Positions 35,481-36,750 of a DNA stretch of 64,000 nt are shown piece by piece. The stretch lies in contig CM000150.2 of assembly GCA_000004695.1 (NCBI GenBank), positions 4,128,001-4,192,000 of the forward strand. The letters run 5' to 3'. Made by a program: the position numbers and the translations under genes. The number at the start of each line of letters is the position of its first letter. Position 1 is the first letter of the stretch. The stretch is from Dictyostelium discoideum (Eukaryota). The notes under the pieces were generated by a model, which ran no database searches, was not told the DNA's origin, and saw only the letters and a program-made list of their open reading frames with translations.

Positions 35481-35525
35481 TTTTTTTAAAAGAGAATTAA
35501 ATTCAAAATAAGATAACTTAAGACA

Positions 35526-35536
35526 GGGATTCGAAC
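35526..35536 (-). promoter_or_regulatory. Ex-B box (GTTCGAATCCC on the minus strand), 35 bp downstream of tRNA-Ile. It is embedded in a half-tRNA-like segment (..AGTGGTGCCAGAATTAGATCACAAGTTCGAATCCCTGTCTTAAG..).
   Basis: B-box consensus. The spacing is the same as for the tRNA-Lys ex-B. Confidence 0.55.
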
Positions 35537-35570
35537 TTGTGATCTAATTCTGGCACCACTTAAAATGTTC

Positions 35571-35643
35571 TGCTCGATGCAGGGATCGAACCTGCGACCG
35601 TGGCGTTATTAGCACCACGCTCTGCCGACTGAGCTAATCGAGC
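35571..35643 (-). tRNA. tRNA-Ile (anticodon AAU), 73 nt.
   Basis: Minus-strand sequence: GCTCGATTAGCTCAGTCGGCAGAGCGTGGTGCTAATAACGCCACGGTCGCAGGTTCGATCCCTGCATCGAGCA. All four stems are perfectly paired. Anticodon loop CTAATAA. Confidence 0.9.
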
Positions 35644-35649
35644 TAGGAT

Positions 35650-36400
35650 GAAAATAATGTAATTGTAATGAATCTCGTATTCCGATTCCTATGGAATACT
35701 CTTTATAATTTGTATATACTTGTGTGACCCTTGAACACACAGAAATAATTAATAATAAATAATAAATAATATTATATCTCTTATATAATATAATAAAGCT
35801 TTCGTTTGTGCACAATTTGGAATAAAACAACAATGAATTAATTTTTATTTTATTTACTGTTTATACTAAAATTAATTTTACTAAAGAAACCATTGGTAAA
35901 ATTTCTGAGAGTAAAGTAAGAATCTTGTATTTGTTAACGTCTTTTCAGTTACAGATTTATATCTATATTTGTATTTTACCAGGGATAAAAACTTTATATA
36001 TTAATTTATGTCGCTTAATTATTCGCGATTATTACAATAATATAATAAATCAGGTGTACTGGTTTATTGAAGTTAATATATAATTAAAAAAATAAGAGTT
36101 TATTTGTATATTTAAGAAAGTAAATACAATGATTTTTTTTTAATATTTTTAGAGTCTTTATTTTAATATTCCGAGTACCAGGATTAGCCTCCTAAAGTCA
36201 TTTAGTATATAATATTATTTATTGTTAACTATTACGGCAAAACTTCTAAAGTCGGTTATGACTAGTAACTAAATTATATTTTGATTCTTATGATTTCCAT
36301 ATTAATATATGTCAATACATAAATCCATATTGGTTTTAATATGGTGAATCATTACAATAATTTTTTTTACCGAAATTTGTAATAAACTAAATCCCGATTC
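35650..36400. mobile_element. Non-coding element of about 750 bp, not A-rich, beginning 18 bp upstream of tRNA-Ile. It is possibly a remnant of a tRNA-targeted LTR retrotransposon (DGLT-A-like) or a solo LTR.
   Basis: Its composition differs sharply from the flanking TRE5 A-rich DNA. Both ends carry a related TGTAAT..ATC[TC]CG[T]ATTCC sequence (35661-35686 and 36381-36404). There is no ORF. The position, 13-33 bp 5' of a tRNA, is where DGLT-A elements are known to integrate. Confidence 0.3.
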
Positions 36401-36750
36401 CAAAAAAAAAAAAAAGAAACAACAAACACAAAAAAAAACTTTAAAATATCACCTCAAACCAACGTGAAGGATTCAGTAAAATATGAAAATACCTCTCCAC
36501 ATAGTAACAATACCATCAAACCTAACAAATAGATCACCACCCTTAACACACTCTTCAACCTTTAAAAAAAAAAAAAAAAAAAAGATACACAACAAACCTT
36601 ACTACCTTCAACAAAAGGCACTAAAATTAATTAATAAAATGATATTCATCAAGAAGAAGCAACAAACATTAAGTTATTCCTGACCAAAAAAAATAAGTAA
36701 CCAAATCTAAAAAAAAAAAAAAAAAAATTAAGTAACCGAATCTAAAAAAT
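36400..36750 (+). mobile_element. Further TRE5-like ORF2-3'/C-module fragments with oligo(A) tracts, ending in a pair of direct repeats (taagtaacc[a/g]aatctaaaaaa) around an A-run.
   Basis: 36440-36700 is homologous to 33960-34250, the ORF2 end plus 3' module. Confidence 0.5.

Follow-up and report, generated by a model that had tools for sequence, protein, structure and literature searches.

The DNA just upstream of a tRNA-Ile gene on chromosome 1 of Dictyostelium discoideum AX4, the source of the 64-kb window (the whole stretch of DNA analysed here), raises the question of where it came from: is it ordinary host sequence, or the trace of a mobile element that chose this gene as its target? 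A tRNA gene had been proposed at this locus from the letters alone, and it is indeed found there. The features are collected in Table 1.

Table 1. Features at the tRNA-Ile locus, with positions in the window.
Feature	Position	Strand	Length	Remarks
External B-box motif GTTCGAATC	35528-35536	(-)		34 nt beyond the tRNA-Ile 3' end
tRNA-Ile(AAU)	35571-35643	(-)		ARAGORN; Rfam tRNA, 64 bits
Foreign block (insertion)	35658-36356		699 bp	flanked by 4-bp duplication ATAA
LTR_B, full-length solo LTR	35664-36036	minus	373 bp	tRNA-proximal
LTR_A	distal part of block		316 bp	DGLT-A-type ends; ATAA on both sides
Host DNA	36357-36402

The composition of the block had been described as unlike both TRE5 and host intergenic DNA. 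It does differ from the A-rich TRE5 strands; however, with a GC of 0.19-0.23 and an AT skew of about 0 it resembles other intergenic stretches, where the values are similar. As the preliminary description had stated, the block lacks an open reading frame: none of at least 75 amino acids is found within it. Further, there is no second copy of the block elsewhere in the 64-kb window.

That the block is foreign is seen when strains are compared. Two wild D. discoideum genomes carry an empty site at this position, while an independent AX4-like assembly contains the block unaltered. These two strains lack the entire block, which is thus an insertion bounded by a 4-bp target duplication. The borders given in Table 1 were set from the comparison with these empty sites, and they replace the earlier estimate of a block of about 750 bp (35650-36400) beginning 18 bp upstream of the gene: the block is shorter and starts 14 bp upstream. 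This also affects the ends that had been proposed, TGTAAT...ATTCC. The TGTAAT is a true element terminus, but the "ATTCC" (36394-36401) falls in the host flank.

The block is not the single element that had been assumed, but two abutting LTR units. The unit closest to the tRNA gene, LTR_B, aligns end-to-end with the LTRs of DGLT-A-type elements in related genomes (nhmmer E=2.4e-87), and a wild D. discoideum strain has gag-pol elements whose LTRs are about 90% identical (89.7-91%) to it. The relatives that carry such LTRs have identical paired LTRs, the primer binding site (PBS) TGGCGACATCG, a polypurine tract and 4-bp duplications. Their gag-pol coding region is full-length, in one open reading frame or in two overlapping frames, and in the related genomes they are located 11-13 bp upstream of tRNA genes.

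We conclude that the block upstream of tRNA-Ile is a leftover of tRNA-targeted, gypsy-like (DGLT-A-type) retrotransposons. The end-to-end match of LTR_B, together with the duplication-flanked insertion that two strains lack, supports the earlier suggestion that a DGLT-A-class element left a solo LTR or remnant here, or that the element is an undescribed one.

LTR_B shows no resemblance to the 277-bp LTR of classical Dd_DGLT-A. The proteins of the LTR_B-type elements are about 39-41% identical to those of classical DGLT-A, and on the basis of this sequence identity we assign them to a sister lineage of classical Dd_DGLT-A. We found no prior description of this lineage for D. discoideum.

For the distal unit, LTR_A, no match was found among the LTRs compared. 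We infer that it, too, is a solo LTR, older than LTR_B and inserted at the same target. Most likely, two retrotransposons hit the same 4-bp target, giving stacked solo LTRs.

On the other side of the gene, the segment downstream of tRNA-Ile is an already known external B box; this agrees with published work (PMC5911963). Its distance from the gene had been described as equal to that at tRNA-Lys, and this holds to within one nucleotide: at tRNA-Lys GTTCGATTC lies 33 nt beyond the gene end. This placement is not due to chance, since GTTCRANNC occurs only 10 times in the 64-kb window, counting both strands, and its GTTCGA version, present five times, corresponds in four cases to the two internal and the two external boxes. 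The likeness to a half-tRNA, on the other hand, does not go beyond the B-box consensus: the stretch has no T-arm fold, and a search with the Rfam tRNA model gave no tRNA match at E<=1.

The finding at tRNA-Ile is real, but its type is one already known.
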